Shown piece after piece: positions 20,137 through 37,492 of a stretch of 64,000 bases of DNA (its first letter is position 1; every line of letters begins with the position of its first letter). This stretch comes from a virus (taxonomy: Duplodnaviria; Caudoviricetes). The notes beneath the pieces were generated by a model that made no database searches, was not told the origin of the DNA, and saw only the letters and a list, made by a program, of their open reading frames with translations. The position numbers were made by a program, and so were the translations under genes. Location of the stretch: the IMG/VR virus record IMGVR_UViG_3300017722_005389. One strand, 5' to 3'.

Positions 20137-20228
20137 AGCTTTAAATTTTAATAGTGAAATGATAGTAAAAATACAAAAGAAATTTCAAACTTCCAAAGAA
20201 ATTCAAAATTTCTTTTGGAAGTCCAATG

Positions 20229-20489
20229 TTAAAGATGAACAAAATTCTTGCAGTAGACGAAAAAAACCAAGTTTTTTATGCAGACTGAATCTGCTCTGTT
20301 GAGAGCTTGTTCAAGGTTATTATCGATAACTGCTTGAACAAAGCTTCCACCTAACAGAACTTTATCTCTTGTCATCATAATGGTTGCAGCAATATGGCAA
20401 ACATGGTATTCATCTTCTCCAATTGGCGCAGGTATGCCATTATAAAATTGTCCGAAAGCTTTTTCAGCTAATATATAATATTTTTCCAT
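20229..20489 (-). CDS. Hypothetical protein
   Basis: ORF, MMTRD..GGSFVQA motif. Confidence 0.7.
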   Translation of the reverse strand: MEKYYILAEKAFGQFYNGIPAPIGEDEYHVCHIAATIMMTRDKVLLGGSFVQAVIDNNLEQALNRADSVCIKNLVFFVYCKNFVHL

Positions 20490-20524
20490 AATAAAGTTAT
20501 TTTTGTACAATAAATCGATCAACT

Positions 20525-20716
20525 TTAGAAATTAGTTTTGAATTTATCATTCAACTGGTCGAAAAGGTCGTTGATTTTATCAACTTCTTTTTGGTAGTAA
20601 TCTTTCAACTCTTGGTGTTCAGCTTTGTCCATCTCATAGATATAAGTGTTCCTTAGAGTCAAAGTATTTGCCGTTAGGAGAACGAATTGTTCTTCTGTTA
20701 ATTTGAAATTTTTCAT
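20525..20716 (-). CDS. Hypothetical protein
   Basis: 63-aa ORF with shared leader. Confidence 0.7.
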   Translation of the reverse strand: MKNFKLTEEQFVLLTANTLTLRNTYIYEMDKAEHQELKDYYQKEVDKINDLFDQLNDKFKTNF

Positions 20717-20740
20717 AGTCTTTAAAGTTTTAATAGTAAT

Positions 20741-21244
20741 TTAAATATTGTTCTTAGATTCCAACCATTTTGAATATTCAAAATCTATGATGTCTTGCTT
20801 AACCTCATACACATTGTCATTGTAACGGTACAAATCATCTTCTTCTGACCAATAAATCAAGTCCAAAAATTCTTGTTCCACATAAGTTACGTTATATGTC
20901 CCATCGGCATAAACCTTTGCTGTTCCGTATACCTCACAGCTATCTTCATCAAACTCGGTTTCGGCATCCAAACCATATTCTCTACAGAGTATAGCCAAAT
21001 CTTCAAGATTAGGTGTCCACTTAGTCATATACCTTATTGAAAATTCTGTCCCATCAGCTATTTCATTTGGTTCATCTTTAACGATAAAACAGAAGTAACC
21101 ATTTTTTATATTCTCGCTGTGTATGGCTTGACCTTCATTGTATCTTTCTTCTGTGTAAGCAGCTTTGTTAATAGCATTGGTCAAAGCTTCGATTTTGTCC
21201 GAACTTCCTTTGAAAGAAGTAAAGTTGTTGCACCAATTCGGCAT
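20741..21244 (-). CDS. MPNWC-family (DUF1281/YubB ferredoxin-like) protein
   Basis: MPNWCNN start; MTKWTP motif. Confidence 0.65.
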   Translation of the reverse strand: MPNWCNNFTSFKGSSDKIEALTNAINKAAYTEERYNEGQAIHSENIKNGYFCFIVKDEPNEIADGTEFSIRYMTKWTPNLEDLAILCREYGLDAETEFDEDSCEVYGTAKVYADGTYNVTYVEQEFLDLIYWSEEDDLYRYNDNVYEVKQDIIDFEYSKWLESKNNI

Positions 21245-21311
21245 AAGTTTAAAGTTTTAATAGTGATTTAAAAATAAGAGCGTAAGCGATTAAAATTGTC
21301 CAACAAAAATA

Positions 21312-21356
21312 CAAAAGAAATCTTGAACTTCCAAATGAAATCCAAGATTTCTTTTG
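21312..21356 (-). promoter_or_regulatory. Cassette promoter inside a hairpin (representative copy)
   Basis: Minus strand TTTG + 20 nt + TATTTTTG; the spacer is the 3' arm of a 14-bp inverted repeat. Confidence 0.85.
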
Positions 21357-21388
21357 TGTAAACCCAAAATTTTTATTTTGAAATAATT

Positions 21389-21937
21389 TTATTTGTTTCT
21401 TTCGATTTCGGCATCGTACAGAACTTGCCATCTCAAAGGAATGTTTTTAATACAGACAAATTCCTCATCCTCCTCAAGTTGCATCTTATTATTCATTAAC
21501 TCAATCAGCGAGGTGTAATGATAGACAATGTCCAAACTCTCCTTCGGACAATTATTCTTTGTGTCCCAAGCGACAAAATCTTCTCTGAGGATGTTTGGCA
21601 GTTCTATTGGGGGAAACATATTATGCCAATTCTCTTTTACACAATAATCGCTGTCCATATCAAGCAAATGTTCAATGTCATTAGTTGCATAATGCATTCT
21701 ATTATATTCATCCATGTTCAAGTGAATCGAAATTCCCGAAAGTGTTTCGGCAGAACTATTGTGAATGATAGCGTGTAATTCACTCAACACTTTCTTTGCA
21801 CAATCCATTCGGTTTTGGATTTCAAGCAATTTGATTTCAAGAAGCACCATCTGTGCTAATACTTCTTTAGAGTGTACATCTTTGTTTGCATTTGGATTGG
21901 CAATCAACTCTCTGAGTTCTTTAAATTCTTTTAGCAT
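21389..21937 (-). CDS. Hypothetical protein
   Basis: 182-aa cassette gene. Confidence 0.8.
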   Translation of the reverse strand: MLKEFKELRELIANPNANKDVHSKEVLAQMVLLEIKLLEIQNRMDCAKKVLSELHAIIHNSSAETLSGISIHLNMDEYNRMHYATNDIEHLLDMDSDYCVKENWHNMFPPIELPNILREDFVAWDTKNNCPKESLDIVYHYTSLIELMNNKMQLEEDEEFVCIKNIPLRWQVLYDAEIERNK

Positions 21938-22043
21938 AATCTTTAAGTTTTAATAGTGAATAAGTGATTTAAAATTGTCCAACAAAAATACAAAAGAAAG
22001 TTGACATTTCCAAGAGAAGCATCAACTTTCTTTTGAAATAATA

Positions 22044-22283
22044 TTATTTTTTTTCTGTTCCGTATTCTTCAATATAATACGCCACATCATTCCAAGTTAT
22101 GCCATAACTTGCATCATGATGCTTAATCATATCCTCCAAAGCCTCTTGCGCTGCTTCTTTGTCTATGGTGTATGCCGAATCGTTATATTCTATAAAATCC
22201 TGCACAGACCACTTGATGGATTCTTTTTTGTACTGCTGAAATTCAGCCAGTAATTGCTCATACATTTCTTTGTAATTTTCCAT
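22044..22283 (-). CDS. Hypothetical protein
   Basis: 79-aa ORF. Confidence 0.75.
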   Translation of the reverse strand: MENYKEMYEQLLAEFQQYKKESIKWSVQDFIEYNDSAYTIDKEAAQEALEDMIKHHDASYGITWNDVAYYIEEYGTEKK

Positions 22284-22295
22284 AGCTGTTATAGT

Positions 22296-22502
22296 TTAAT
22301 AAATGTTTAATAATTCTTTTTCTACTGCATTGTAAAAGTTGATTTGGTTTACATTGTGCTTGTCTCCGTTAAACTTTTTTAGGTCTATCAAATACTTTCT
22401 TATCTGTCTTAAAAATTTCTCATTAGATTTGAAAGCATGCTTCTCTACCTCTATGAATTCTAAGACTCTTTTTTTAGTCGCATAATAAGTTACCTTTCTC
22501 AT
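22296..22502 (-). CDS. Hypothetical protein
   Basis: 68-aa ORF. Confidence 0.7.
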   Translation of the reverse strand: MRKVTYYATKKRVLEFIEVEKHAFKSNEKFLRQIRKYLIDLKKFNGDKHNVNQINFYNAVEKELLNIY

Positions 22503-22523
22503 AGCTGTTATAATTTAAAGTGA

Positions 22524-22736
22524 TTAAAACCAATCCAACTCAAGTAGTGAGATTTTACCCTCTAATATGCCTTGCATTGTCTCTTTGCTAACAATCGCAT
22601 TTACCCAACCACCGCAGGTTTCTGTGATGTCAAATTTGTCCTCAGACATTCTGTAAACATCACGAGTAATCAACCCGAATTTCCAATCAATAGAATGTCC
22701 AATTGGCAAGTTCATAATTTTTTCCATAGCTGTCAT
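22524..22736 (-). CDS. Hypothetical protein
   Basis: 70-aa cassette gene. Confidence 0.7.
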   Translation of the reverse strand: MTAMEKIMNLPIGHSIDWKFGLITRDVYRMSEDKFDITETCGGWVNAIVSKETMQGILEGKISLLELDWF

Positions 22737-22805
22737 AATAGTATAAATTTTAATTGTGAATTAATTGTAGTACAAAAATAGAAAATACTTTTCACATTTC
22801 ATAAT

Positions 22806-23111
22806 TTATTTTGAAATTTCTTTTGTAATAATTACTTTTTCAATAAATTTCCCATGTACGAAAATATCCCCCAATCCAACTTCATCTGTTGACAATACGG
22901 TTGCCAAGCAATATTCTAAGATTTCTTGTCTGTGTTCTCTTGCAATATCATCCTGCTCACCTTTCAAGCGATAAACAAACTCTCTTGGTTCATCTGCATC
23001 ATTTTCAAATGCGTGAATCAGTTTTGTGTTGACATCATAAAAGATATCAAAGGTGTTGTCATTGGTAGTGTTGTCAGCCAATTCAATTTGCTCTAAAAAT
23101 AATTCTAACAT
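22806..23111 (-). CDS. Hypothetical acidic protein
   Basis: 101-aa cassette gene. Confidence 0.75.
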   Translation of the reverse strand: MLELFLEQIELADNTTNDNTFDIFYDVNTKLIHAFENDADEPREFVYRLKGEQDDIAREHRQEILEYCLATVLSTDEVGLGDIFVHGKFIEKVIITKEISK

Positions 23112-23207
23112 AGCTGTAAGTGTTTAAATAGTGAATTAAAGATAGTGTAAAATTACAAAAGAAATCTCGAACTTCCAAATGAAATCCGAAATTTCTTTTG
23201 AAATAAA

Positions 23208-23660
23208 TTAAAATACTTTTGAGTAATCTTCTTTGTTAAAGAGTTTTATAATATCTCTCAATACATCTGTATAATTCTCAAGAGGAATGTTTATACTAAA
23301 TTCAACGTAACCATGCCCAGTACCATCCCCTAAAAAGTTTTTATCTGCTTTTGAGGTTTCTTTATACTTTTCATATAACTCTCCTAAGCTAATAAATTGA
23401 GTGCTTTCTCTATAACCTAATACTTTCATTTTAAACTTAACAGAATCCTTTGTAGCGTAAAATGAAGGCACTTCATATCTTTGACCTATTTTGCCTAAAT
23501 GAATAGTGCAATAGGAATTGTAGTCGTGTACTTCAACATTTATTCTAAATACATTTGAGAGGTCATTTGCTAATGTTTTTGCAAATGCTTTGTTTCTTTT
23601 AACGTTATCAATTTCGGTTCTTTCAGAATCCAACATTGCTTGAAGAAATAAGTTTTCCAT
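23208..23660 (-). CDS. Hypothetical protein, tandem paralog A
   Basis: MENLFLQAM..SERTEIDN shared with 23781. Confidence 0.85.
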   Translation of the reverse strand: MENLFLQAMLDSERTEIDNVKRNKAFAKTLANDLSNVFRINVEVHDYNSYCTIHLGKIGQRYEVPSFYATKDSVKFKMKVLGYRESTQFISLGELYEKYKETSKADKNFLGDGTGHGYVEFSINIPLENYTDVLRDIIKLFNKEDYSKVF

Positions 23661-23780
23661 AATAGTATAAATTTTAATAGTGAATTAAAGATAGTGTAAA
23701 ATTACAAAAGAAATCTTGAACTTCCAAATAAAATTCAAGATTTCTTTTGTGTAAACCCAAAATTTTTATTTTGAAATAAT

Positions 23781-24239
23781 TTAAAATACTTTGGCGTATC
23801 TATTTAATTTAAACAATGATAGAATATCCTTTAGAACATCATCATAATTCTGAAGGGGAATTTGTATTCTAAACGTAACGTTACCATGCCCACTTTTCTC
23901 ATTTAAGAAATTATTATCTGCTGTAGCTGAATCTTTATATTTCTCATATAAATCTCCTAACAGCCTTCCAAAAAGTTGCGACTCACCTCTATACCCCAAT
24001 ACATTCATATTGAATATGACACCATCTTTTTTAGCAATAAAGTATGGGCAATTAAATCTTTGACTCATTGTTCCAACATAAATTTGTGAAGAATCAATAG
24101 AATCACTGATTTGCAAATTTATTTGAAATACTTTCGAAAGGTCATTTGCTAATTTTCTTGCGAAATCTTTGTTTGCTTTAATGTTATCAATTTCAGTTCT
24201 TTCAGAAATTGGCATTGCTTGAAGAAATAAGTTTTCCAT
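23781..24239 (-). CDS. Hypothetical protein, tandem paralog B
   Basis: Colinear similarity to 23208 along its whole length. Confidence 0.85.
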   Translation of the reverse strand: MENLFLQAMPISERTEIDNIKANKDFARKLANDLSKVFQINLQISDSIDSSQIYVGTMSQRFNCPYFIAKKDGVIFNMNVLGYRGESQLFGRLLGDLYEKYKDSATADNNFLNEKSGHGNVTFRIQIPLQNYDDVLKDILSLFKLNRYAKVF

Positions 24240-24366
24240 AATAGTATAAATTTTAATAGTGAAATAAATAGAATGTAAAATTACAAAAGAAACTCCAAAC
24301 TTCCAAATAAAATTCAGAGTTTCTTTTGTGTAAACCCAAAATTTTTATTTTGAAATAATTTAAAAG

Positions 24367-24579
24367 TTACATTTCACGAACCCATTCATCAGCATCATCA
24401 TTTGAGATTCCGAATTTTCTACAGAGAATATCCACAATTATATCTTGTGTAATAAACTCTTCTTCGTCATCAGTATCCATACAATTTCTTACAATGCCTT
24501 CTTCTACAAGAGAGTCAACAATTTCAATAGCCAAATCTCTAACGTAATCCAAATCTTTCGGGAAGTTAATCGTTTCCAT
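24367..24579 (-). CDS. Hypothetical acidic protein
   Basis: Start moved to METINF. Confidence 0.75.
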   Translation of the reverse strand: METINFPKDLDYVRDLAIEIVDSLVEEGIVRNCMDTDDEEEFITQDIIVDILCRKFGISNDDADEWVREM

Positions 24580-24676
24580 AATCTTAATGTTTAAATAGTG
24601 AAATAATTTAATTGTAGTACAAAAATAGAAAATACTTTTCACATTTCATAATTTCTTTTGAAATAATTTTATTACA

Positions 24677-24910
24677 TTAACGAATTCCTTTATTCCATCG
24701 ACCTCGGAATAATCTGCCATTTTCTTTATCATTATTATTATAAGCATAAAACAAATCACCATAATGTGATGTAGATAATAAATCTACATTATCATAAACG
24801 GATAAATCCACCTCTTTTTCAGGGTAATACCAATCGGTATTATTTTTTAACCAACCCCAACATTCGATAGTTATTTTACCATTTTCCATAAAATCAGAAA
24901 AACTTTGCAT
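24677..24910 (-). CDS. Hypothetical protein
   Basis: 77-aa cassette gene. Confidence 0.7.
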   Translation of the reverse strand: MQSFSDFMENGKITIECWGWLKNNTDWYYPEKEVDLSVYDNVDLLSTSHYGDLFYAYNNNDKENGRLFRGRWNKGIR

Positions 24911-25011
24911 AAAATAAATTTTAATAAGTGAATTAAATATTTGACCCTACAAAGATATGCAAAGCAATTCACATTTCCAAATGAAATCCAAGATTTCTTT
25001 TGAAATAATTT

Positions 25012-25851
25012 TCAATAAATTTCATCTAAGTCGATTCCGTGAGTTTCATACCACCATTCTTTTGACTTATTAGAATGTTTATCCTTTAATCTGTTATATC
25101 GTTCCAAAATTTTGTTTTGGCGTTCAATTTCATTATTAAAAAACTCATGTTCTAATACTTCTCTACACTTGTATATTTCACGAAGTATTTTACGTAAAAC
25201 ATAACCTTGTTTTAGATTAGAGGGTATATAACCACTTTCTATAATTTTTAGAGCCGTATCTTTGAGTGTTTCAACTTTATCTATTTTTTTACCATTGACA
25301 AACATTTCAAGTCTTTCAAGCCCAAATCCAACATCAATACAATTATCAAGTGGGTTGACAATATTACCAATTTCAATACCATCAACAAAAAATTCTGTAC
25401 AATAACCTCCTATTTCACCATCGCTCCAATGACAGTTTTCATCGTCTACTATTACATCCTCAATGCCCAGTTGATTATAATATCCAAGCCACTCTTTTCT
25501 GTCACTATGAATTGTAACATAATCGGGTGTAATACCTATTTTTTTTAAGAATGTAACCCAAAAGATAATAGTATCTTCAATAGACATCTCTCTGAATGAG
25601 AATAACCCAATCATATTAAAATAGAGCAAATGGGATAAATCGCCTATTTCTTCAAAGTCATTCATTCGAATACAAGCTTGAACATTTGAAACAGTATTTT
25701 TATATTCGCTATCTTTGAATTGACATTTGAATTTTTGCATTCCTGCAGGGCAAAACAAAGTTGTATTGTCATAAGGATTTACTTTGTTTTCAATGCTAAA
25801 GAAGATATTTTTTTCTTCGCAAAATTTTTGGTATTCTTCAATAATATTCAT
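25012..25851 (-). CDS. alaS: Minimal alanyl-tRNA synthetase-like protein (catalytic core only)
   Basis: TLFCPAGMQKFK, QACIR, HLLYFNMIGLFSF, IEIGNIV, IDVGFGLERL, PSNLKQGYVLRKILR; 279 aa, no editing or C-Ala domains. Confidence 0.9.
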   Translation of the reverse strand: MNIIEEYQKFCEEKNIFFSIENKVNPYDNTTLFCPAGMQKFKCQFKDSEYKNTVSNVQACIRMNDFEEIGDLSHLLYFNMIGLFSFREMSIEDTIIFWVTFLKKIGITPDYVTIHSDRKEWLGYYNQLGIEDVIVDDENCHWSDGEIGGYCTEFFVDGIEIGNIVNPLDNCIDVGFGLERLEMFVNGKKIDKVETLKDTALKIIESGYIPSNLKQGYVLRKILREIYKCREVLEHEFFNNEIERQNKILERYNRLKDKHSNKSKEWWYETHGIDLDEIY

Positions 25852-25950
25852 AAAATAAAATTTAATAAGTGAATTAAATATTTGACCCTACAAAGATATG
25901 CAAAGCAATTCACATTTCCAAAAGAAATGCAAAATTATTTCAAAAGAATT

Positions 25951-26577
25951 TTAAATTCTTCCTCTGAAGTATTTAAGTTCCTCGTTATAGTTTATTTTCT
26001 TTCTAACGAAGTTTAAAATACTTTCCTTTGTAAGTTGCCCACTTGCATCACAAAGTGGATAATTTTGCGTTCTGATGATTTCAGAAGCTGGATATGGGTT
26101 GCCTTGATGATTTATGAATGCTGGCAGAAACGTTGACATTTCCAACCTGATAAAACTATTAAGCTTGACACCAGAAAACTTTTCATTTGCTTCCCAGATT
26201 GTTACAGCTGCTTTGGCTTGTTCAACATAATTCATTTGAAGCAACTCTTCTTTAGAAACCTTTAAAAGTTCTCTTGCGTGATCACCAAACATTATAAGTC
26301 CAGCAAAGCCACCACCATCAGCTTTTGGATCCATACCAGATTCACCCCACATTATAAGCAAACAGAATTTCCAATCCAATTTTCTGGCATCACCAAAAGA
26401 TTTCAATACTTTGACAAACTCTTCCCTTTCAACATCAGGAACCTTGCAAAGCAACTCTTTGACATCTGAGTGTTCAATTTCAATGGGAAGAGGTACCTTT
26501 ATTGAATGCGCATAATTTTTTGGCGCAGCAGCGATCAATGTAATACATAAAAAAATAGAAGTAAAAATTGTTTTCAT
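25951..26577 (-). CDS. Secreted lytic transglycosylase (SLT-like)
   Basis: Signal peptide; IMWGESGMDPKA...GLIMF. Confidence 0.7.
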   Translation of the reverse strand: MKTIFTSIFLCITLIAAAPKNYAHSIKVPLPIEIEHSDVKELLCKVPDVEREEFVKVLKSFGDARKLDWKFCLLIMWGESGMDPKADGGGFAGLIMFGDHARELLKVSKEELLQMNYVEQAKAAVTIWEANEKFSGVKLNSFIRLEMSTFLPAFINHQGNPYPASEIIRTQNYPLCDASGQLTKESILNFVRKKINYNEELKYFRGRI

Positions 26578-26595
26578 AATAAAATTGTTTTAAAT

Positions 26596-26628
26596 AAAAA
26601 AACCCTTGGGCTCACTACTTCCCAAGGG
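26596..26628 (-). terminator. Intrinsic terminator
   Basis: Minus: cccttggg-aagtagtgag-cccaaggg-ttttttt. Confidence 0.8.
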
Positions 26629-26675
26629 CAATTCACTATTAAACTATAAGAACTTTTTCTTTGGGAACTTATGAG

Positions 26676-26828
26676 TTATTCCCAGGAGCATTTTTGTTTT
26701 CGATTGTATTTTTTAGCGTTCTTATGGACTTTTTTAATCGCATAAAACCCATGCGGATGCTTCTCCAGATAGACTTCTCTTGCACCAGAACCGCAAGCTT
26801 TCTCAAGAATTTTATTTGATTTTTTCAT
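26676..26828 (-). CDS. Small basic protein (not in ORF track)
   Basis: MKKSNKILEKACGSGAREVYLEKHPHGFYAIKKVHKNAKKYNRKQKCSWE, 50 aa. Confidence 0.55.
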   Translation of the reverse strand: MKKSNKILEKACGSGAREVYLEKHPHGFYAIKKVHKNAKKYNRKQKCSWE

Positions 26829-26863
26829 AAGTGGCTGTATATCATATTATAAATAGTATCCAA

Positions 26864-27367
26864 CTATATAAAAAGTGTATCACCAACTTTGGTGCCAGAA
26901 AATAATCTGGCTTCAGAAACTATAAATTTTCTAAATTGGGTGCTTTGCATATAGTTAAATCTGATGTCATCTTTTATTTTTGTGAGGGGTCTTCTTGTGT
27001 CCTCTTTAGTAGATTCAGATATTTGTTCTTTGGATTCAAGGAACCCGAACAAGTACAACTTGTCATCCTTCTTTTGTAGTCCAACCCCGATATTTTCATA
27101 AGGGTCCTTCCAATTGGAGTCCTCAGAAGCTTTCTTAGGAAACATAATCTTCTGAAGAATTTCTTGTCTAGCTTCTTCATAAACCTGCTCTTCAAAAGAA
27201 AGGTTTGAAAGTGTATTGATGTCATGTCCAATGCATTCATAGACATTCTTCTTGATATCTATAAGGTATTGTGCTGATTCTCCTTTGGAGTTGGTGTATT
27301 CCATACAGATGCATCTTACATCTTCGGTCAACTCATTCCAGCGATTTGAAACTTCTGTTACTTGCAT
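26864..27367 (-). CDS. Hypothetical protein, paralog of 42629..43282
   Basis: YTNxxGE and DTR..LTK.KD..M.S..FR.F.V shared. Confidence 0.8.
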   Translation of the reverse strand: MQVTEVSNRWNELTEDVRCICMEYTNSKGESAQYLIDIKKNVYECIGHDINTLSNLSFEEQVYEEARQEILQKIMFPKKASEDSNWKDPYENIGVGLQKKDDKLYLFGFLESKEQISESTKEDTRRPLTKIKDDIRFNYMQSTQFRKFIVSEARLFSGTKVGDTLFI

Positions 27368-27480
27368 AATAAATATTTTAATTGCAAATGTACAACTTTA
27401 TTTTTTAAAAAAGAAGGGTTCAAAGGAAAAAATTTTAATTTTCTTAAGAACCCTCCGAAAACTCAAAATTATACTAATAC

Positions 27481-27798
27481 CTAAAGTACAAAACAAGGTA
27501 CTGAAACTATATGTCCAGCTTCATTTCTTACAACAGCTGGATGTCCAGTTGCAGGTGCAAGACAATCAGTTCTCCCTTGAAGCTTTGCAGCTGTCAGAAC
27601 CACTGCTGAAACTATAAAGAAAGTTCCCTCTGCTGAATCGGGCAGGTCTTGAACTGTCCCAAACACTTGGGAACAAATTCCGTTTTCTATTTCAGAGAAT
27701 GTCGCAGAAACTCTTGCAACAGTCCCAGATTTTACAAATACTGTCCCATCGTTGAAAACGATATCGTGTGGGGTGCAATTGATGAATGTAGCAGTCAT
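27481..27798 (-). CDS. Hypothetical protein
   Basis: INCTPHDI...IVSAVV motif; 105 aa. Confidence 0.8.
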   Translation of the reverse strand: MTATFINCTPHDIVFNDGTVFVKSGTVARVSATFSEIENGICSQVFGTVQDLPDSAEGTFFIVSAVVLTAAKLQGRTDCLAPATGHPAVVRNEAGHIVSVPCFVL

Positions 27799-27984
27799 AG
27801 TAGTAAAGATTTAAATGTTAATAAAATTTTTCAATGCTGCTTTGCCTGCAATGGGTTTAGTGTGAAAAAATACGGGCTTTAGGGTTTCCCACTCCCTTTT
27901 TTTTTATTTTATAAACAAAATCCCGATTTTTTCTTTGACTTCTTTATATTCACGAAATAGTCTTTTTAGTTTTAAAAAATAAAT

Positions 27985-28445
27985 TGGTGGCGTATTAATT
28001 ATTTCACGCCTTAACTCCCAATATCTATCAATTAGTTTATCCATTCAATTTTCTTTTTGCTTCAAACAAATCAAACATTTGCTCTCCAGTTAGCGATAAT
28101 GTAATCCTGCAGCCATCTGTATGAGTGCCTGTTATTTCATCTTCCCTCTGCACTCAGTTGTAATACTAAATAATGCTTGTATTTCTACACACTATTCATT
28201 AGAAGGTTTTCGTTTTATACCTCATAGATTACAACTGCTCACCCTTGGGAACTGATTAACTTACATACTCAAGGTTGTCATCCTTGTACTGTTCCTGAAG
28301 ACTTTACAGGTTTCACATTATGTAATTCATTCTGACTTGTGTAACAGTCTTATTAATCAGGTAGTTTCACATCTTAATAAGACATTCACTACTTTAAGTG
28401 AGTTGTGGTGCATTAAAAAGAGCAGTTTGTCTACATGCTCAGATA
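27985..28445 (-). ncRNA. Candidate large structured non-coding RNA (~460 nt)
   Basis: ORF-free; 10-bp stems 28347-56/28374-83 and 28155-64/28228-37; gagtgc/gcactc; caagg/ccttg; gagca/tgctc; GAAA loops on minus strand. Confidence 0.7.
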
Positions 28446-29525: not shown

Positions 29526-29633
29526 AATCTTTAAAGTTTTAAAATAGTGAATAAAATAATTGTACAACAAAATTACAAAAGAAAGTTGACATTTCCAAGA
29601 GAAGCATCAACTTTCTTTTGAAATAATTAAAAT

Positions 29634-29798
29634 TTAACAATCCATATCATTTACTTGGTTTCTAAAATACTCTGTGATGTCTATTAAGGCATCCACCAAT
29701 TCTTCTTCAGACATCAATGCGAATTCTTTCGCATCTTCAACTGTTTCGATTTCGTCTGAAGAAAAATCAAAAATTGCTTCAATAAGTTTCTTTCTCAT
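29634..29798 (-). CDS. Small acidic protein (not in ORF track)
   Basis: 54-aa ORF with own cassette promoter and leader. Confidence 0.6.
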   Translation of the reverse strand: MRKKLIEAIFDFSSDEIETVEDAKEFALMSEEELVDALIDITEYFRNQVNDMDC

Positions 29799-29889
29799 AA
29801 TAAAGTTTTAAAATAGTGAATGAAATAAAATAATTGTCCTACAAAAATAGAAAATACTTTTGGCATTTCCAAATTTTCTTTTGAAAGAA

Positions 29890-30162
29890 TTACAAATAAT
29901 ATTCAGTAATCAAATTGGTAGCGGTTTCTTCTATGTAAATATCGCTCATTGTATCTGTTGTATTGTACCAATAGTCATCATCATCGGTTTTGAGAAACCC
30001 TTGCACTATATCATTGTTATAGATTTCAGTAGCAATCTGTTCAATTGCTTCAACTGAAGCAATATTATCTAACGGCATTTCTTGATTAGATCTTGTAACT
30101 CTAATTCTTTCCCAGGTTCTTGCAACATGAACCAATACATAATTGAAAATTGTCCTATTCAT
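29890..30162 (-). CDS. Hypothetical protein
   Basis: Start moved to MNRTIF. Confidence 0.7.
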   Translation of the reverse strand: MNRTIFNYVLVHVARTWERIRVTRSNQEMPLDNIASVEAIEQIATEIYNNDIVQGFLKTDDDDYWYNTTDTMSDIYIEETATNLITEYYL

Positions 30163-30288
30163 AAATTTGGATTTTTGCAGGTTTATAACCATAGTTCATT
30201 ACTATCAAGCCAATTTCATTGTCAGCTTCCTTTTCAGTCAAAGGAACTCTGTTCAACTTGATGTTCTTATAAAACAAATTAAATGTTT

Positions 30289-30555
30289 TCATACAGTATT
30301 TATTCTTATGAGTTCTGTTTTAATAACAGAAGCAAGGTTATTAAGTTGTAAGACAACATCTAAAGGGTAATATTTATAAACGGCTTCACAAGATAAGGTT
30401 TCAAAAACATCGCCACTATAAATTTTTTCTTCTAATTCGTAATCTGTATCGACATACATTTCTCTCCCCTCTAAGAGTTTAATAACTCCTTCCAACAATA
30501 CATCTTTTGGAATTTCTGTTATTGAAATAACAGAAAAGCTTTCATTGGTAAACAT
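30289..30555 (-). CDS. Hypothetical protein
   Basis: 88-aa cassette gene. Confidence 0.75.
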   Translation of the reverse strand: MFTNESFSVISITEIPKDVLLEGVIKLLEGREMYVDTDYELEEKIYSGDVFETLSCEAVYKYYPLDVVLQLNNLASVIKTELIRINTV

Positions 30556-30650
30556 AATAGTATAATTTAATAGTGAAATAAATATAATGTAAAATTACAA
30601 AAGAAATCTCGAACTTCCAAATGAAATCCAAGATTTCTTTTGAAATAATT

Positions 30651-30860
30651 TTAATTGTTTTCTATGGTATCTAAGTAAATCATTTCATTGTTGACACAAA
30701 TATATTCTCTGTTATCGTTTCCAGTATCTGTGTACACCATTATATATCCAACTGGTGTTCCATTGAGAAACAATATAATATCTTCATTATTCTCGTCCAA
30801 GTAAGACAGCTGGGCATAGCTTGTGAAATCAAGTGTCAATTCATCTGTGTAAAATTCCAT
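30651..30860 (-). CDS. Hypothetical acidic protein
   Basis: 69-aa ORF with leader. Confidence 0.75.
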   Translation of the reverse strand: MEFYTDELTLDFTSYAQLSYLDENNEDIILFLNGTPVGYIMVYTDTGNDNREYICVNNEMIYLDTIENN

Positions 30861-30887
30861 AAGTATGATGTTTAATAGTGAGAAAAT

Positions 30888-31184
30888 TTATTGAAACTCG
30901 TAACCAACTTCGGTTACATAAAAATTAGAACCATCGAGGTTGTCATTTCTCATCTTTAACATATATATGTCAAAGTATCCAAAGGTACTTTCCTTTTCGC
31001 TGTTGAACATTATGTTCCAATCAGTTATAGTATTTGTCTCGTCATCCTCGTTGACGATTTCAGCTTCAATTTTTTCATCAAAGGCTTTTGACAAACTTTC
31101 TGTCAATGTTTTCATATTAAACCTTTGACCAACCAAAGATTCTAAAAAGTCTGCAATTTCTTTTTGCTTTTGAGTGAGAGCCAT
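30888..31184 (-). CDS. Hypothetical protein
   Basis: Start moved to MALTQK. Confidence 0.75.
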   Translation of the reverse strand: MALTQKQKEIADFLESLVGQRFNMKTLTESLSKAFDEKIEAEIVNEDDETNTITDWNIMFNSEKESTFGYFDIYMLKMRNDNLDGSNFYVTEVGYEFQ

Positions 31185-31302
31185 AGTGATAATGTTTAAT
31201 AGTGATTTAAAAATAAGAGCGTAAGCGATTAAAATTGTCCAACAAAAATACAAAAGAAAGTTGACATTTCCAAGAGAAGCATCAACTTTCTTTTGAAATA
31301 AT

Positions 31303-31476
31303 TTATTTTTCTTTCAAATCTTCATAGGTGGTTATTGAAGCAGTTACTCTTTCTATAAATAAATCTGCCCATTGGTTATCGTCCATCATGCCGATACCTT
31401 TTTGGTTTTGGTAATCTGCTAAGTCCTGCTGGATGTCATCAAGAATAGCTTTTAGCGTTTCAAAATTCATGTTCAT
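31303..31476 (-). CDS. Small protein (not in ORF track)
   Basis: 57-aa ORF with leader. Confidence 0.55.
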   Translation of the reverse strand: MNMNFETLKAILDDIQQDLADYQNQKGIGMMDDNQWADLFIERVTASITTYEDLKEK

Positions 31477-31509
31477 AATGTAAAATTTTATTAGTGAGTG
31501 AAATAATAT

Positions 31510-31746
31510 TTATTCTTCGTTAAACTCTGCATTATGCTCACAATCCGCATAAAAAAGGTCGGGACAATCAGATATTTCTAATGTGTGTTTGCAATACGCA
31601 CACTCAATTTCATTGTCCATTATATCGTGTAATAGAACCTCCCCACAATTCCCACACGTTACAATGTTAATATTTGCTAACGCTATAACTCTTTTTGATA
31701 GTTCAATTTGTTTTTCAACTAATTGTCTTTTTGTTACTTTTGTCAT
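31510..31746 (-). CDS. Zn-ribbon protein
   Basis: CGNC...CAYC; start moved to MTKVTK. Confidence 0.75.
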   Translation of the reverse strand: MTKVTKRQLVEKQIELSKRVIALANINIVTCGNCGEVLLHDIMDNEIECAYCKHTLEISDCPDLFYADCEHNAEFNEE

Positions 31747-31830
31747 AATTTTTAAAGTTTTATTAGTGAATAAAATAATGTCCAACAAAAATAGAAAATA
31801 CTTTTGGCATTTCAAAATTTATTTCCAACT

Positions 31831-32091
31831 TTATTTTGAAAGAATTAAATTTTTTATAGTCCCACTTCCAATGACATAAACGAATAAATCTTCAATGATC
31901 GTTTCTTCATCGGTCTCTGTCCTATTCAAGAGAATGAAATTGTTATCATCATCTTGATAGATGAAAGTTCCCTCTGTATCGCCATCGCTTTTCACAGACC
32001 AGACTGGGTTTCCTCCCCAGTTTGCTGAAGATCTCTGGACAACTCTTTTATAATGTTTGTCCAAGAACTTCTGTACGTTTTTGTGTAACAT
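31831..32091 (-). CDS. Hypothetical protein
   Basis: 86-aa ORF with leader. Confidence 0.75.
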   Translation of the reverse strand: MLHKNVQKFLDKHYKRVVQRSSANWGGNPVWSVKSDGDTEGTFIYQDDDNNFILLNRTETDEETIIEDLFVYVIGSGTIKNLILSK

Positions 32092-32157
32092 AGTTTTAAG
32101 TTTAATAGTGAAATAAAATGTCCAAATTCAAATTGAACTTTCTTTTGAAATAATTTT

Positions 32158-32310
32158 TTAGTACAAATAAACTTTAGTTCCTCGCAGAATTTCTCTGCCA
32201 CTTTCAATAATAAACAGTTTTGCTTCTTTTAAAGATTTTGCTTTAATCTCTTGTGTGCAAAATGAATCATTAGTGTTTGCTTTGCGTGTCCAAGCTTTGT
32301 AAGTTTTCAT
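32158..32310 (-). CDS. Small protein (not in ORF track)
   Basis: 50-aa ORF with cassette promoter. Confidence 0.5.
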   Translation of the reverse strand: MKTYKAWTRKANTNDSFCTQEIKAKSLKEAKLFIIESGREILRGTKVYLY

Positions 32311-32399
32311 AATATTAGTTTTATTTGTGAATAATAAGTATAAAGATAAAAAAGAAAGTTGACATTTCCAAGAGAAGCATCAACTTTCTTTTGAAATAA

Positions 32400-32675
32400 T
32401 TACAACCAAGTTTTTTTAGTTATTTTCTTTTTTCCATCTACTAATTCCCATCTTTCAAACCACTGACCCCATTCACCCCTGCGAGACCTTGTAATTTCTA
32501 CAGTATTATCCGTAGCATTGTCCAATAGTCTTTGCAGACTTTTCTTTAGGCTTTCATAAGTGTTAAAATGCCCTTGAGCTAAATGCTCTCCATAAGTTGA
32601 GTAATAATATATTAACCCAAGTCTTTCAGCAATATTTCTATTGCTTACTTTCAAACATACATAAGGTTGTCTCAT
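32400..32675 (-). CDS. Hypothetical protein
   Basis: 91-aa cassette gene. Confidence 0.75.
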   Translation of the reverse strand: MRQPYVCLKVSNRNIAERLGLIYYYSTYGEHLAQGHFNTYESLKKSLQRLLDNATDNTVEITRSRRGEWGQWFERWELVDGKKKITKKTWL

Positions 32676-32832
32676 ATCTATATAATTTAATAGCGATTAA
32701 ATTGTCCTACAAAAATAGTAAACACTTTTGGCATTTCCAAATTTTCTTTTGAAATAATTTCAGTTTCAAAAGATTTTTTTTGGTGCCCCTGGATCGATCT
32801 CCAGGGGCATTGTCCAAAATCTTACATTGCCC

Positions 32833-33759
32833 TTACATTGCCACCGACATTGCATCGTACATTGCCTTAGTCACAATGAAGCTATTGTCCGACTGATTTT
32901 TAGGAACTTTTTTCAAGTTCAACCCTAAGACTTGTTTTTCTTGCAAGAACGTCAAATCTGTTTCATCGCCATTTGCGACATCGTAACCTAAAAACGTTTC
33001 GGGGAATTGACCACCAAAAGAAGCTAAGTCAAAGACTACAGCTATTTTTTGTCCAATTGACAATGCATACATAGCTGTAGCTATATTGTTATGCTCATTG
33101 GTATTTGCATAGCTGAATGTAACATCATAATTGCTATGCTCATTGGCATTGTCCAATTGCTTTTGCATCTTAGTATAGTCATAGAATTGAACATCTGAAT
33201 GAATGTCCAATAATGACTGGCTATCAGTTTTAAACAAGTTAATGTTCAAATCTGATGTACCATTCAAACGAACAGCAAAGTTCTTATTTTGTGATGCAGA
33301 CAAAAACTTTGCAGCACTAATTTCGGCATTAAGCCAATCCATAAAAAAGTTTCGGTTAAAAAAGAATAACCAAGTTTTTTTCAGTCTTGCCCAAGTTATT
33401 TGGTTAATAACTTGTCCTTCAGTTAACATCATTGCCCTACCTGATTCAACAAGACAAGCTTGTTTGCAGCCTGATGTAGCTTGCGGACAAATATTGAAAC
33501 CTGACATATCTGCTGCTGCAAGATACATTACTAAGGTATTGTAATCTTTTTTCTCGCCTTTGACAATCTTAGCTGAACTATTTACGCCAGCAAGATACGA
33601 CAAACCTGTCATTTTTGTAGCCTTTGAACGGTTGACAAATTTTTTGCTTTCAACGTTTCGAAGCATTGTAATTACTTCTTTCATTTTTGAAAGATAGTCT
33701 GACTTAGATGCAGACACTTCTGCTACAGCACCTGCAATTTTTTTAAGGAAAGCTTTCAT
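32833..33759 (-). CDS. GP88-like (radical-SAM-related) phage protein
   Basis: NICPQATSGCKQACL, VRLNGTSDL, QFYDYTK, YDVTFS, NGDETDLTFL. Confidence 0.8.
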   Translation of the reverse strand: MKAFLKKIAGAVAEVSASKSDYLSKMKEVITMLRNVESKKFVNRSKATKMTGLSYLAGVNSSAKIVKGEKKDYNTLVMYLAAADMSGFNICPQATSGCKQACLVESGRAMMLTEGQVINQITWARLKKTWLFFFNRNFFMDWLNAEISAAKFLSASQNKNFAVRLNGTSDLNINLFKTDSQSLLDIHSDVQFYDYTKMQKQLDNANEHSNYDVTFSYANTNEHNNIATAMYALSIGQKIAVVFDLASFGGQFPETFLGYDVANGDETDLTFLQEKQVLGLNLKKVPKNQSDNSFIVTKAMYDAMSVAM

Positions 33760-33844
33760 AGTGTATGAAATTTAATAGTGAAACAATAATAAGTACAAAG
33801 ATAGTAAAAGATATTAGAACTACAAATAATTTCAAAAGAAAATT

Positions 33845-34165
33845 TAAAATATTTTTTGTAGTCGTAACTACCTTTGCAAATATCTTGAGACAAAGATATA
33901 ACAAGTTTTTCAAATAAAAAAATTTATTTTTACCTCAAAAGAACTTTTTTAATTTCCAAATTTTTTAACAATTTTAACTAAAAAAAATTCTGGCATTGTA
34001 ATATACGAAAACACGCTGGCAACGAAATATACGAAGATTTCAATCTGTTGCAGGTCTGGATTAATCCTACCTTCGAACTTCGTCTCAGAGATATGCACTA
34101 TCAATTAGCTGTTACAAAAGTATGCATAATAGCTGGCATTACAAAATATTTTTAGTTAAATTTTT
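33845..34165. repeat. ~300-bp regulatory module copy 1 (upstream of GP88-like gene)
   Basis: Colinear near-identity with 38855-39215. Confidence 0.85.
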
Positions 34166-34367
34166 AAATTATTTTAAAATAATTTTCAAAGGAAAGATCT
34201 TTGTTTCTTTTGAACCCAGATTTGCCTCTATTCGCTTAAAATTTGCCATCTGAGACACTTTCACTCCAGTCTGGATTAATACCTCGATCCAAATGTAAAA
34301 ACGTCTCAGATCGAATATACGACAAGCTGGTATAAGGAATAAAAAAACCCCTTTCGGGGTTCAGAAG

Positions 34368-34520
34368 TTATTTTGATATCTTTATTTGTCTGTCATAAAG
34401 ATAATCTTTATAAACAGCATATACATTGTAATCTTGCTCTTCTCTAACGAAGATTAACTTTTCATCTTCAGCTGGTGTGTAAGATTTTAAAACTTGCTTT
34501 GAACTCTTTTTCATAAACAT
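34368..34520 (-). CDS. Small hypothetical protein
   Basis: ORF ending before terminator aaaaaaaccc-ctttc-ggggtt. Confidence 0.55.
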   Translation of the reverse strand: MFMKKSSKQVLKSYTPAEDEKLIFVREEQDYNVYAVYKDYLYDRQIKISK

Positions 34521-34534
34521 AATTTTTAAAGTTA

Positions 34535-34726
34535 TTATATAAGTTCCCATTTAATTACTGAGTCACTCAGTATGTTTAATATTTGCCCAGCCTCAAATCT
34601 GTCAATTACCGCATACTGAATTGTCAAAGTTTCTTTATCTTTACCCAGTAAAGATTCAGAGGTTCTAAAGGTGCTACAAAAACTATTGAATAGTTTTTTG
34701 TTGTTTAATTTCATCTGTAGTGTCAT
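34535..34726 (-). CDS. Hypothetical protein
   Basis: 63-aa ORF with leader. Confidence 0.7.
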   Translation of the reverse strand: MTLQMKLNNKKLFNSFCSTFRTSESLLGKDKETLTIQYAVIDRFEAGQILNILSDSVIKWELI

Positions 34727-35119
34727 AAGTTAAAGTTTTAATAGTGATTTAATGAGTACAAATTACGATATTATTATTGACACTACCAAATTATTTTAGT
34801 TAAAATTTTAAAATAATTTTCAAAAGAAAAATCTTTGTTTCTTTTGAACCCAGGTCCAGATTGCCCAGATTGCCCAGATATAACTCTAATGATTAAAATT
34901 TTGCCATCTGAGACGCTTTTAGCTATTCAGTAACATCTTAGCCCAGACTGGTATAAAAGTGTCTTAGATCGAAGATTGTCACAAATTATTACTATAATTG
35001 GGACAAATTTAATGATCATTCGCAAAAAAAATAGACTACCAAAAGAAAATTATTGATCTACATTTGGTAGTCTATTATACTTATCGCAAAAAAAAAGCTA
35101 CCATAAAGGTAGCCTTAAT

Positions 35120-35287
35120 TTATCTTACAATGTATGCACTATCTTTGACAAACATTACCTTGAGCGTATCATCACCGCTCCATTGGTAGTTGTCTGGTGT
35201 TACAGCAGATGCAGATGCAGTTTCAAAATTTTGCAGCAGAAAATAAGCCACAACAACTAGTACTACTAATATCAGAAAATCTTTCAT
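35120..35287 (-). CDS. Small membrane-anchored protein (not in ORF track)
   Basis: MKDFLILVVLVVVAYFLLQ..., 55 aa, leader upstream. Confidence 0.6.
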   Translation of the reverse strand: MKDFLILVVLVVVAYFLLQNFETASASAVTPDNYQWSGDDTLKVMFVKDSAYIVR

Positions 35288-35567
35288 AAGTGTAAGTTTT
35301 AATAGTGAAGTAATTATCTTTGGCTTGATTTAACACAATTGGCTACGCTTGGTGCTTGATGAGCAATCTGTGAAGTTTCAAGTAATAGAACCTCTACAAG
35401 CATTCCATTTATGAACATTACAAGTTTTTCTTCATTTTTGGATTTCATTGGTAGTGAATTTAAATGGTAAATTAAATATAGTGTAAAATTACAAAAGAAA
35501 GTTGGCATTTCAAAATAAATTACCAACTTTCTTTTGTGTAAACCCAAAATTTTTCTTTTGAAATAAT

Positions 35568-35924
35568 TTAATTTATTCTGACACCATTTTTGAATGTAAC
35601 TATAAAGCAGTCTCTGAACATTGTTCGTCTGTAGTATGAATGCTTTATATAGGCATCAGCTAAATCTTCTGAAGGAATTAAAACTCTGTAGATTATTTTT
35701 CCATCTTTCAGACAAGCAGTCTCAAATTCATAGGCATCAATAACCTGTTCATGAAACTTAGGTTTCTGCATCAGCATTTCTAGGTTTGATGTTGAAGCTA
35801 TCTGTACTGCATATTGAATTTTATCGGGTACACAAGGAACTGTTTTGTTATCGGTGCTATCAATTGATTGCCCAAAAGAAAAAGTTGCTGTAACGACAAA
35901 TAATGCGATTAAAATCTTTTTCAT
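35568..35924 (-). CDS. Secreted SPOR-like peptidoglycan-binding protein
   Basis: Signal peptide; YAVQIAS, IYRVLI, DCFIVTFKNGVRI. Confidence 0.6.
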   Translation of the reverse strand: MKKILIALFVVTATFSFGQSIDSTDNKTVPCVPDKIQYAVQIASTSNLEMLMQKPKFHEQVIDAYEFETACLKDGKIIYRVLIPSEDLADAYIKHSYYRRTMFRDCFIVTFKNGVRIN

Positions 35925-35930
35925 AAAGTT

Positions 35931-36089
35931 TTATTTTGTGTTTGAAGTAATGATTTTTATTATAGCTAAAACGAATGCTGTCCTTTCAGACATTGTTTCT
36001 TTCAGTTTAGCAAACGTTCTGTCGAACTCAGATTGATTTTCTTTTGAAATTTCAATCTTATAATTGAGTTTTGATATGTTAACTTTCAT
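35931..36089 (-). CDS. Small hypothetical protein
   Basis: Start moved to MKVNIS. Confidence 0.55.
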   Translation of the reverse strand: MKVNISKLNYKIEISKENQSEFDRTFAKLKETMSERTAFVLAIIKIITSNTK

Positions 36090-36180
36090 TTTTAATAATG
36101 AGTGAATTAAATTAGAAAACAAAATTAAAAAAGAAAGTTGGCATTTCAAAATAAATTACCAACTTTCTTTTGAATGAATT

Positions 36181-36420
36181 TTATACCGCAATTAACCAAT
36201 CAGTAACACCCCAATTTACTGAACTTGTAACCGAATAACCTTTTCTCCTAAGTCTATCAGCTACGATAGGCATATACATAAATTCCTCTACAGACCAACC
36301 AAATGAGGGTGCATCTTTGCAAGTTGTAAAGGTAGTGGTTAAACTATTACCACTTAACCAACCTTCAATTCTGTTCTGTAGTTCAGTAATGAACTGCTCT
36401 TTTCTTTCTAATGCTGTCAT
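36181..36420 (-). CDS. Hypothetical protein
   Basis: 79-aa cassette gene. Confidence 0.75.
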   Translation of the reverse strand: MTALERKEQFITELQNRIEGWLSGNSLTTTFTTCKDAPSFGWSVEEFMYMPIVADRLRRKGYSVTSSVNWGVTDWLIAV

Positions 36421-36568
36421 AAGTTATAAAATTTTAATAGTGAGTGAAATAAAATAAGTGCGTAAGTGATTTAATTGACCTTACAAAGGTAAGGATTAGT
36501 TTTATTATTTCAAAAGAAAATTCAAACTTTCTTTCGTATACTTTGAATTTTCTTTTGAAATGTTTTTT

Positions 36569-36742
36569 TTATCTGTTGATATACTGAATTCTCTGGCTTA
36601 CTACCAGCATATTGATAAAGAATAATACACAAAAAAGAAGCGAATAAAATGTACCAAATAATATAGCTGCACACATAATGCTAACAGCAGCAGCAGCCGA
36701 AAATAAAATGATAACAATAGCTGAAATGAATTGAGTTTTCAT
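36569..36742 (-). CDS. Small membrane protein
   Basis: Start moved to MKTQF; two TM helices. Confidence 0.65.
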   Translation of the reverse strand: MKTQFISAIVIILFSAAAAVSIMCAAILFGTFYSLLFCVLFFINMLVVSQRIQYINR

Positions 36743-36803
36743 AGTAAAAGTTTTTAAAGTGAGTTTAATATTTGCAGTTGGCTGGATGCTACACCCAGAA
36801 TTT

Positions 36804-37073
36804 TCATTCAATTATATACCCTTTCATTTTTTTGGCACATTCATTTCCAATTGGAAACATTCCTTGTGTTTCAGCACCTGTCATTTCAAGACATTTTTCA
36901 TCAGTTATTGATGGATGAACAGCCAACCAATTTGTATTCATATGAACGTATTTTTTATCATTTGCTTTCATTGGTTTGCCACAACAAATGCACTGGTCTT
37001 CTGCCTGACCATATTTGTCCAAATTGCTGTCTAACATTGGGGAAACATAGAGTTCCTTTGTAATCTGTTCCAT
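36804..37073 (-). CDS. Zn-binding hypothetical protein
   Basis: CICCGK...FPIGNECAKK. Confidence 0.8.
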   Translation of the reverse strand: MEQITKELYVSPMLDSNLDKYGQAEDQCICCGKPMKANDKKYVHMNTNWLAVHPSITDEKCLEMTGAETQGMFPIGNECAKKMKGYIIE

Positions 37074-37135
37074 AATAGTAAATTTTTAAAGTGAGTTTAA
37101 TATTTGCAGTTGGTCGGATACTGCGCCCCGAATGA

Positions 37136-37393
37136 TTATTCTGTAAGTTGTGTTGGCATTTTAAACCAATCTGCTGGCTCATACGAGCCAATTATAATGT
37201 CAACACAATTGATTGTCACATAGAACGCATTACAATTGTCCAAATATGGGTCGGAATCAAAAAATTCCAACTTGTATTTGCCGTTATTGGTTTCAATAAC
37301 ATCAACAAACCCATAGGTTCTATTGTATTGAACCATAATGTTTTTTACATACTGCCAATCCGATTGGCTTGCTTTATAATCTGACTTTGCCAT
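37136..37393 (-). CDS. Hypothetical protein
   Basis: 85-aa cassette gene. Confidence 0.7.
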   Translation of the reverse strand: MAKSDYKASQSDWQYVKNIMVQYNRTYGFVDVIETNNGKYKLEFFDSDPYLDNCNAFYVTINCVDIIIGSYEPADWFKMPTQLTE

Positions 37394-37492
37394 AATTATC
37401 AATTTTTAATAGTGTCCAACAAAGGTAGTGATTAGTTCTGAATAATCATAATTATTTCAAAAGAAAATTCAAATTATTTTCTAAAGAAAAAA

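Follow-up and report, generated by a model that had tools for sequence, protein, structure and literature searches.

A stretch of 64,000 nucleotides from a virus of the class Caudoviricetes (IMG/VR record IMGVR_UViG_3300017722_005389; the whole stretch is hereafter called the window) contains a minus-strand array of approximately 55 small genes, mostly ORFans, at 19405..43282, in which a repeated intergenic unit combines a hairpin with a promoter. This unit is probably a composite regulatory cassette of a Bacteroidota jumbo phage, similar in design to PeSLs, the promoter-early stem-loop cassettes of the T4-type phages RB49/phi1, PST/T4, and nt-1/KVP40 (Arbiol et al. 2010, PMC2839356; Comeau et al. 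2014, PMC4122927). An earlier note on this DNA had proposed such a Bacteroidota equivalent of PeSLs. The composite anatomy, the covariation of the hairpin arms, and the variation between strains agree with that proposal, whereas the layout proved to be less novel than had been implied.

The window is AT-rich (GC content approximately 30%), and no plus-strand gene occurs among the array genes from 43.3 kb down to 19.4 kb. The array holds approximately 24 Bacteroidota-type promoters, and the hairpin is present at roughly half of them. Each unit is about 100 nt in length and spans the distance between the stop codon of an early gene and the ATG of the next one. Read on the minus strand, it is composed of an A-tract (CAAAAGAAA), a 7-nt variable arm, a loop, the complementary arm, TTTCTTTT(G/T), and a -7 box, with TTTCTTTTG as its U-tract. 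By using a regex scan and a stricter pattern, exactly 12 canonical hairpin copies of 44-45 nt were counted between minus-strand genes (20174 to 36172), in addition to a variant and several degenerate or half copies; at least 12 inverted repeats had been recorded previously. The anatomy is the same in all 12 window copies. The loop motif is TTTGGAA, TTTTGAA, or CTTGGAA, the -7 box TA-w-y-TTT-(G/A) follows TTTCTTTT(G/T) without a gap, and the downstream ATG lies 29-59 nt past the box (12/12) behind a Bacteroidota-type leader that is free of Shine-Dalgarno (SD) sequences.

The canonical copies, all on the minus strand, fall into several classes of inner stem. The copy at 20166..20217 (hairpin 20217-20174) has the inner stem TTTTGAA/TTTGAAA, the box TATTTTTA (20173-20166), and an ATG at 20136. 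The TCTTGG class is found at 21304..21356 (hairpin 21356-21312, box TATTTTTG, ATG 21244) and 30590..30642 (hairpin 30642-30598 with one U-G pair, box TAATTTTA, ATG 30555). Copies of the GTTGA class are located at 21983..22035 (hairpin 22035-21991, box TATTTTTG, ATG 21937), 29568..29620 (hairpin 29620-29576, box TAATTTTG, ATG 29525), 31243..31295 (hairpin 31295-31251, box TATTTTTG, ATG 31184), and 32341..32393 (hairpin 32393-32349 with the closing C-G pair lost, box TATCTTTA, ATG 32310), and those of the GTTGG class at 35484..35536 (hairpin 35536-35492, box TAATTTTA, ATG 35448) and 36120..36172 (hairpin 36172-36128, box TAATTTTG, ATG 36089). The other three copies, which share the box TAATTTTA, represent the TTTCGG class (23148..23200; hairpin 23200-23156 with one U-G pair, ATG 23111), the TCTTGA class (23697..23749; hairpin 23749-23705, ATG 23660, the start of the first of two tandem paralogues), and the CTCTGA class (24276..24328; hairpin 24328-24284 with two G-U pairs, ATG 24239).

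Several further copies depart from this plan. In the variant at 36484..36556 (minus strand), a 16-bp hairpin (36556-36512) lies upstream of the promoter, and its 3'-terminal TTTG is placed 19 nt before TACCTTTG, so that it doubles as the -33 element. A chimeric cassette at 24950..25005 (minus strand, box TATCTTTG) consists of a TCTTGG-class 5' arm and loop joined at TTTGGAA to a different promoter spacer, which leaves the hairpin broken and the promoter geometry intact; a diverged copy of it lies at 25891-25945 on the same strand. Degenerate or half copies were identified near 22777, 24624, 24961, 25890, 29846, 31790, and 32111. Some copies are identical: the match of 21991-22035, 29576-29620, and 31251-31295 is exact, as had been reported, and that of 21264-21320 with 31203-31259 actually spans 65 nt. 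Moreover, the type of upstream flank, the hairpin class, and the downstream type are found in every combination.

All 12 canonical copies fold, with stems of 16-21 bp, loops of 4-13 nt, minimum free energies of -17.5 to -26 kcal/mol, and z-scores of -5.7 to -8.4, and none of 200 shuffles folded as well. A covariance model was built from these copies and run over the window and six related contigs (described below), and the alignment was limited to sense-strand copies (the element is nearly palindromic), which were fitted to the model almost without gaps. The resulting 87 copies correspond to 67 distinct rows and 46 distinct hairpins. Standard pairs occupy 97.1% of the cells, compared with 86.3 +/- 0.7% when the 3' letters were shuffled, and in eight of the 16 pairs both partners have changed (138 cells). 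The covariation score is 0.356, versus at most 0.065 when the 3' partners were slid by 1-3 columns, so the covariation between arms that had been noticed among the window copies is borne out in the larger alignment. The nine outer pairs, formed by the A-tract and the U-tract, are essentially invariant, and the seven inner pairs occur in at least 15 different complementary forms. No Rfam family matched the hairpins at the gathering score, the sole match in the window being a tRNA-like one (15964-16060).

The non-Watson-Crick pairs are distributed unevenly between the strands. On the transcribed strand, 50 cells are G-U and 4 are A-C, and after collapsing to distinct events the ratio of G-U to A-C is 20:4 (binomial p=0.0015). 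AT-pressure does not predict this asymmetry, because it would raise C-to-T changes (giving G-U) and G-to-A changes (giving A-C) alike. An evidently chimeric hairpin contains at least one of these four A-C pairs (relative A, index 22206). The mismatches at 23156, 24284, and 30598, from which the earlier note had argued for selection on RNA structure, are indeed U-G or G-U on the minus strand only, and the strand asymmetry points in the same direction. The sense-strand hairpin is here taken to be under selection, most simply as RNA.

The promoter part of the unit was also examined in the 67 distinct copies. Positions T33, G36, and A37 of the loop and T56, A57, and T60-62 of the box are invariant at fixed spacing, T34 differs in a single copy, and the two 'n' positions of the -7 box are never G. 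The box positions agree with both TAnnTTTG and TAHHTTTG, the latter being the refinement of this motif in Flavobacterium johnsoniae (PMC6847099). The spacer from TTTG to TAnnTTT(G/A) is 19-20 nt and is formed by the 3' arm of the hairpin; promoter and hairpin constraints can be superimposed on one 45-nt stretch. This is the geometry described earlier, except that in the four GTTGA-class copies the loop carries CTTGG instead of TTTG. The pattern TTTG-N18-21-TAnnTTT(G/A) has 33 matches in the window, compared with 11.1 +/- 3.6 expected, and the minus strand between 20.1 and 39.2 kb accounts for 21 of them. In addition, approximately 12 hairpin-less array promoters (such as those at 24950, 25891, 28957, 29842, 31786, and 32710) have the same TTTG-N19-20-TAnnTTTG spacing, and the hairpin is therefore an addition to the promoter, not part of it. 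The predicted cassette promoter thus fits the Bacteroidota -33/-7 type, i.e., a host-type promoter. A sigma-70 reading of the cassettes was rejected, as TTTACA-N18-TAAAAT fits no more than 2-3 copies, and the others lack a consistent spacing.

The start regions of the array genes provide further information about the host. An SD-like 4-mer was found upstream of none of 54 array genes (0/54), and A is enriched at -13/-12/-11, -6, and -3 upstream of these genes, the same pattern of A enrichment as in the translation-initiation signature described for F. johnsoniae (PMC6847099). Since SD-free, A-enriched start regions constitute this signature, the host is probably a member of the Bacteroidota, as far as can be judged from such sequence signals. 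The window had no match in the INPHARED phage collection by megablast and tblastn, and the data point to an uncultured freshwater jumbo phage as its source. The protein encoded at 21389-21937 recurs unchanged in the JGI samples 3300022407 and 3300027642. A conserved leader (AATTCACTATTAAA) is present about 20 nt before the ATG in the array. With up to two mismatches, the leader motif (AATT)CACTATTAAA is carried by 32 of the 54 array genes (19400-43300, minus strand); it sits 19-22 nt before the start codon in most of the 32 and is also found upstream of genes without their own promoter. This motif is likely a standardised Bacteroidota-type translation initiation region, and alternatively it may be a promoter for a phage RNA polymerase. 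Separately, TTTAATAGTGAATT (26596-26680, minus strand) is the reverse complement of the early leader motif and stands directly before a GC-rich terminator upstream of the gene at 25951-26577; this region could give rise to a small RNA antisense to many early leaders.

Comparison with related genomes revealed extensive differences in cassette content. Protein-seeded and pattern-based scanning of IMG/VR identified six contigs that belong to the same lineage, namely relatives A (32.9 kb), B (25 kb), D, E, and F, which share 85-96% nucleotide identity with the window, and the more distant relative C (125.6 kb). Multi-copy arrays of the exact hairpin pattern were found in this lineage only (six contigs), and approximately 20 other IMG/VR contigs with single or double matches were treated as chance occurrences. 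According to the gene-family strings, relatives A and B each hold cassettes missing from the window, and vice versa, and the gene order of relative C is permuted (one part reads w29, w31, w33, w30, versus w29, w30, w31, w32, w33 in the window). The comparison of gene order between strains that had been suggested earlier thus yielded gains, losses, swaps, and reordering of open reading frames (ORFs). In the relatives at 85-96% identity, ORF-sized insertions and deletions have their edges at cassette borders, the edges of a block lying a few nt into an ORF on one side and 12-37 nt before a hairpin on the other. Because these edges fall at gene borders, it is the ORF that is exchanged, with the regulatory cassette as its conserved flank. 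Events with an end within 60 nt of a hairpin account for 9 of 12 between the window and relative A and 8 of 12 between the window and relative B.

Individual events illustrate how such differences are bounded. The region 20175-20233 is an insertion hot spot, with 0, 885, 1195, or 1986 extra nt across genomes, and in relative A a 121-nt duplication of the 30598-type cassette encloses an additional ORF. Relatives have lost the genes 20741-21244, 22296-22502, and 30888-31184. The first two deletions are bounded by 16-21-nt repeats in leaders or start regions, not by hairpins, and in the third the two sides abut 15 nt past the hairpin without any overlapping repeat. As several deletions use leader repeats, the homology resides in the whole regulatory cassette and not specifically in the hairpin. 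The hairpin class also differs between genomes for orthologous genes, and chimeric hairpins occur, one of which, in relative A, combines a TCTTGG 5' arm with a GTCAAC 3' arm. At the junction orthologous to 21312-21356, a tract of about 90 nt in relative A has been converted to the 21991-type cassette, with identical flanks. A swap of the inner stem only was considered at this site and rejected, since the gene-conversion tract begins in the outer arm and extends almost to the ATG. As a separate observation, the tandem paralogues at 23208-23660 and 23781-24239 (minus strand; 150 and 152 aa) each have their own hairpin cassette; the corresponding repeats (D8 and D10) show 72-88% identity, and relatives A and B have a single copy.

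A mechanism may be proposed on the basis of these features. The host sigma-A RNA polymerase would start about 5 nt past the -7 box, and with a start at this distance (G at -5) the hairpin would therefore lie outside the transcript of its own promoter and would be transcribed solely by read-through from the upstream gene. The read-through RNA could then fold as an intrinsic terminator or attenuator composed of A-tract, stem, and U-tract, and the upstream RNA would end within or just before the -7 box of the next promoter, which would insulate neighbouring cassettes. At the DNA level, the comparison of relatives shows that the repeated units of about 100 nt and the shorter leader repeats serve ordinary homologous recombination and gene conversion, by which whole ORFs are deleted, inserted, swapped, or reordered while their regulation stays intact.

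With regard to the first part of this mechanism, we infer that the hairpin terminates upstream transcription. Its tracts are fixed in sequence and its inner stem is fixed in pairing alone, the pattern expected of an intrinsic terminator. A simple terminator rule is satisfied by 7 of the 12 copies and gives 24 sites, versus 7.7 +/- 3.1 in shuffles, and at 28.9 kb an ordinary GC-rich terminator is located immediately before a hairpin-less promoter. The plus strand outside the array also shows the array's layout of a terminator abutting a promoter (50993-51090), although with an unrelated hairpin: TATCTTTG comes directly after a succession of A-run, 10-bp stem, and T-run at 50993-51050, and an ATG lies at 51085.

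On the other hand, a number of points weigh against the proposed reading. The stems, at 16-21 bp and with no more than 3-5 G-C pairs, are longer and weaker than expected of terminators, ordinary GC-rich terminators are also present in the array, and the constraints on the U-tract cannot be told apart from those on the promoter spacer and the -7 box. As for the promoter, the -7 box ends in A, not in the nearly invariant G, in half of the copies, and the -33 element is reportedly weak in F. johnsoniae (PMC6847099). With regard to recombination, adjacency breaks were not enriched at hairpin junctions (6/12 versus 26/41 elsewhere, Fisher p=0.5), nor were they in relative B (7/12 versus 17/29, Fisher p=1.0). 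The repeats serve as homology, and no special recombination role of the hairpin could be demonstrated; of the earlier suggestion that the repeats act as recombination homology, the edges at cassettes in relatives support one part, but breaks are not concentrated at hairpins and leader repeats serve equally well.

The main rival to termination is a role of the hairpin in RNA processing or stability between the cistrons of polycistronic early transcripts, for instance as an RNase III site, as in the early region of T7, or as a 3' protective stem, the overlap with the promoter being incidental. Near-perfect helices of 20-21 bp have about the minimal size of an RNase III substrate and exceed the usual length of terminator stems, the selection for G-U pairs on the sense strand would suit any RNA role, and ordinary GC-rich terminators are present elsewhere in the array. 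However, the outer arms are conserved as A-tract and U-tract in sequence, beyond pairing, a T-rich tail follows in every case, and an analogous succession of hairpin, T-run, and -7 box is found at 50993; this explanation is considered unlikely.

The inverted repeat could instead act as DNA, either as an operator at which a dimeric regulator of the phage or the host would switch off the early promoters, or as an extruded hairpin or cruciform promoter that a phage RNA polymerase reads, as in the early promoters of N4. In favour of such a role, the outer half-sites TTTCAAAAGAAA / TTTCTTTTGAAA never vary, the TTTGGAA loop is conserved, and the element overlaps the promoter; jumbo phages also often encode their own RNA polymerases. 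Nevertheless, covariation is free in the inner 7 bp, where at least 15 stem variants occur, and a protein that reads sequence would not need pairing. The 20:4 excess of G-U over A-C is on the non-template strand, whereas N4 hairpins have 5-7 bp, 3-nt loops, and a location on the template strand, and promoters with the same boxes exist without hairpins. A role at the DNA level thus appears quite improbable.

It is more doubtful still that the repeat is a selfish or hitch-hiking palindrome, similar to REP or MITE sequences, which has spread by gene conversion without a regulatory role and whose boxes merely reflect AT-rich composition. Many copies are near-identical and mosaic, as would be expected of such an element, but they are strictly intergenic, fixed in orientation, and consistently spaced from the ATG that follows. 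In addition, the loop and box positions do not vary among the 67 distinct copies, the promoter pattern is three times as frequent as in shuffles, and double changes preserve pairing.

A related, speculative idea is that a structure-directed process targets the hairpins, such as template switching at an extruded sense-strand hairpin in the course of replication or the action of a dedicated nuclease or recombinase. The chance of this seems very small; if it were true, the outer arms would represent a universal joint for the capture and exchange of cassettes among co-infecting jumbo phages, and the hairpins would be a promoter-carrying analogue of integron attC sites. Least credible is the stricter version in which the hairpins are dedicated, structure-recognised recombination sites of the attC kind used by a phage recombinase for capturing and excising gene cassettes, since the one-directional array, the conserved outer boxes with a variable but paired and strand-asymmetric inner structure, and the insertion hot spot at 20175-20233 are outweighed by crossover zones that vary (leader, loop, outer arm, and first codons), breaks that are not enriched at hairpins, the promoter of every cassette, and the finding of no IntI-type or other recombinase domain among the window ORFs scanned.

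Besides the cassettes, several other features of the array and the window were identified. The array products other than ORFans comprise an ArdC-like anti-restriction protein (37788-38771), GP88 (32833-33759), a protein with an Api92-like domain (20741-21244), and a 279-aa protein similar to alanyl-tRNA synthetase (AlaRS) on the minus strand (25012-25851; PF01411, E=1.3e-20). The AlaRS match is restricted to the N-terminal catalytic part of this class II enzyme, so that only the catalytic core is present. This gene has its own promoter cassette, and in relatives A and B other DNA takes the place of the segment with this gene and the adjoining 77-aa gene. A 150-nt direct repeat with 95% identity (33843-33992 versus 38851-39000) is located in regions of about 600 nt upstream of the GP88 and ArdC genes, which appear to have a long regulatory region in common. 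The segment 27877-28522 (646 nt; intergenic gap 544 nt) has no convincing ORF and no Rfam match, and it is missing from relatives A and B, where its flanks overlap by 21 nt.

A second cassette family without the hairpin was found in six copies at 39500-43400 on the minus strand. It has a near-consensus sigma-70-type promoter, TTGAAA-N16-TATAAT (11/12 matches), at 39850, 40437, 41093, 41710, 42377, and 43373, and in the five intergenic cassettes that were read a TAyyTTTG box and the leader variant CACTTTAAACACTACTATT come after it. Such a sigma-70-like promoter is unexpected in a Bacteroidota host. The Rfam match mentioned above (plus strand, 37.3 bits to the tRNA model) appears to be a tRNA-like RNA whose anticodon region is non-standard; ARAGORN predicted no tRNA in the whole window.

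The PeSL principle, in which self-contained and transcriptionally insulated gene cassettes are shuffled via their own regulatory repeats, would by these findings be extended to another bacterial phylum, another promoter grammar, and a jumbo phage. The data set is unusually clean, with 46 distinct hairpins, strong covariation, a strand-specific excess of G-U pairs, chimeras, and four genomes with differing cassette orders. The cassette is also a candidate compact promoter/terminator part for the genetics of Flavobacteriia and other Bacteroidota, and it may serve as a marker for early genes, probably for host takeover or anti-defence, in uncultured phages.

Among known systems, integron attC sites differ from the array in that their core sites are GTTRRRY, compared with the outer boxes CAAAAGAAA/TTTCTTTTG here, and in that attC cassettes are promoter-less with a fixed crossover point, whereas the array cassettes have promoters and variable crossover zones. 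The array hairpins are also distinct from N4-type hairpin promoters in their stems of 16-21 bp, their loops of 4-13 nt, and the non-template location of the G-T-tolerant strand. With A-tract-containing intrinsic (Rho-independent) terminators they share the A-tract, the paired stem, the short loop, and the U-rich tail, as well as the constraint of the tracts in sequence and of the stem in structure; unlike in such terminators, a conserved promoter element is located in the loop, the U-rich tail also acts as a predicted -7 box, and G-C pairs are few.

The closest likeness is to PeSLs. In both systems, a repeated unit fills the intergenic space between small early ORFs of a hyperplastic region, these being non-essential in the case of PeSLs, relatives differ in gene content, and degraded 'half' units occur. 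The stem-loop of both contains G-T pairs and lies mostly between the boxes of a promoter, which is one for the host primary sigma factor in PeSLs and a putative one here, and in both, insertions, deletions, and replacements of ORFs adjoin the units in close relatives, here without enrichment over other junctions. The two differ in several respects, including the lack of sequence homology, a Bacteroidota -33/-7 promoter (TTTG / TAnnTTTG) instead of a sigma-70 type, a translation region without SD sequences, and a longer (16-21 bp), AT-rich stem with an invariant A-tract and U-tract instead of GGGG..CCCC. The host phylum and phage lineage (an uncultured jumbo phage) are also different, and terminator activity (in reporter assays) and mini-circles, which form by recombination between flanking units, have been demonstrated for PeSLs, whereas the terminator activity of the array cassettes is a predicted one. 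In the literature searched, no paper describing such cassettes in Bacteroidota phages was found. The 'fused' layout of hairpin and promoter is not new, since the stem-loop of RB49/phi1 is most often located between -35 and -10 or overlaps the -10 box, with G-T pairs noted (PMC2839356). The array is thus a variant of the PeSL design rather than a new category of system.

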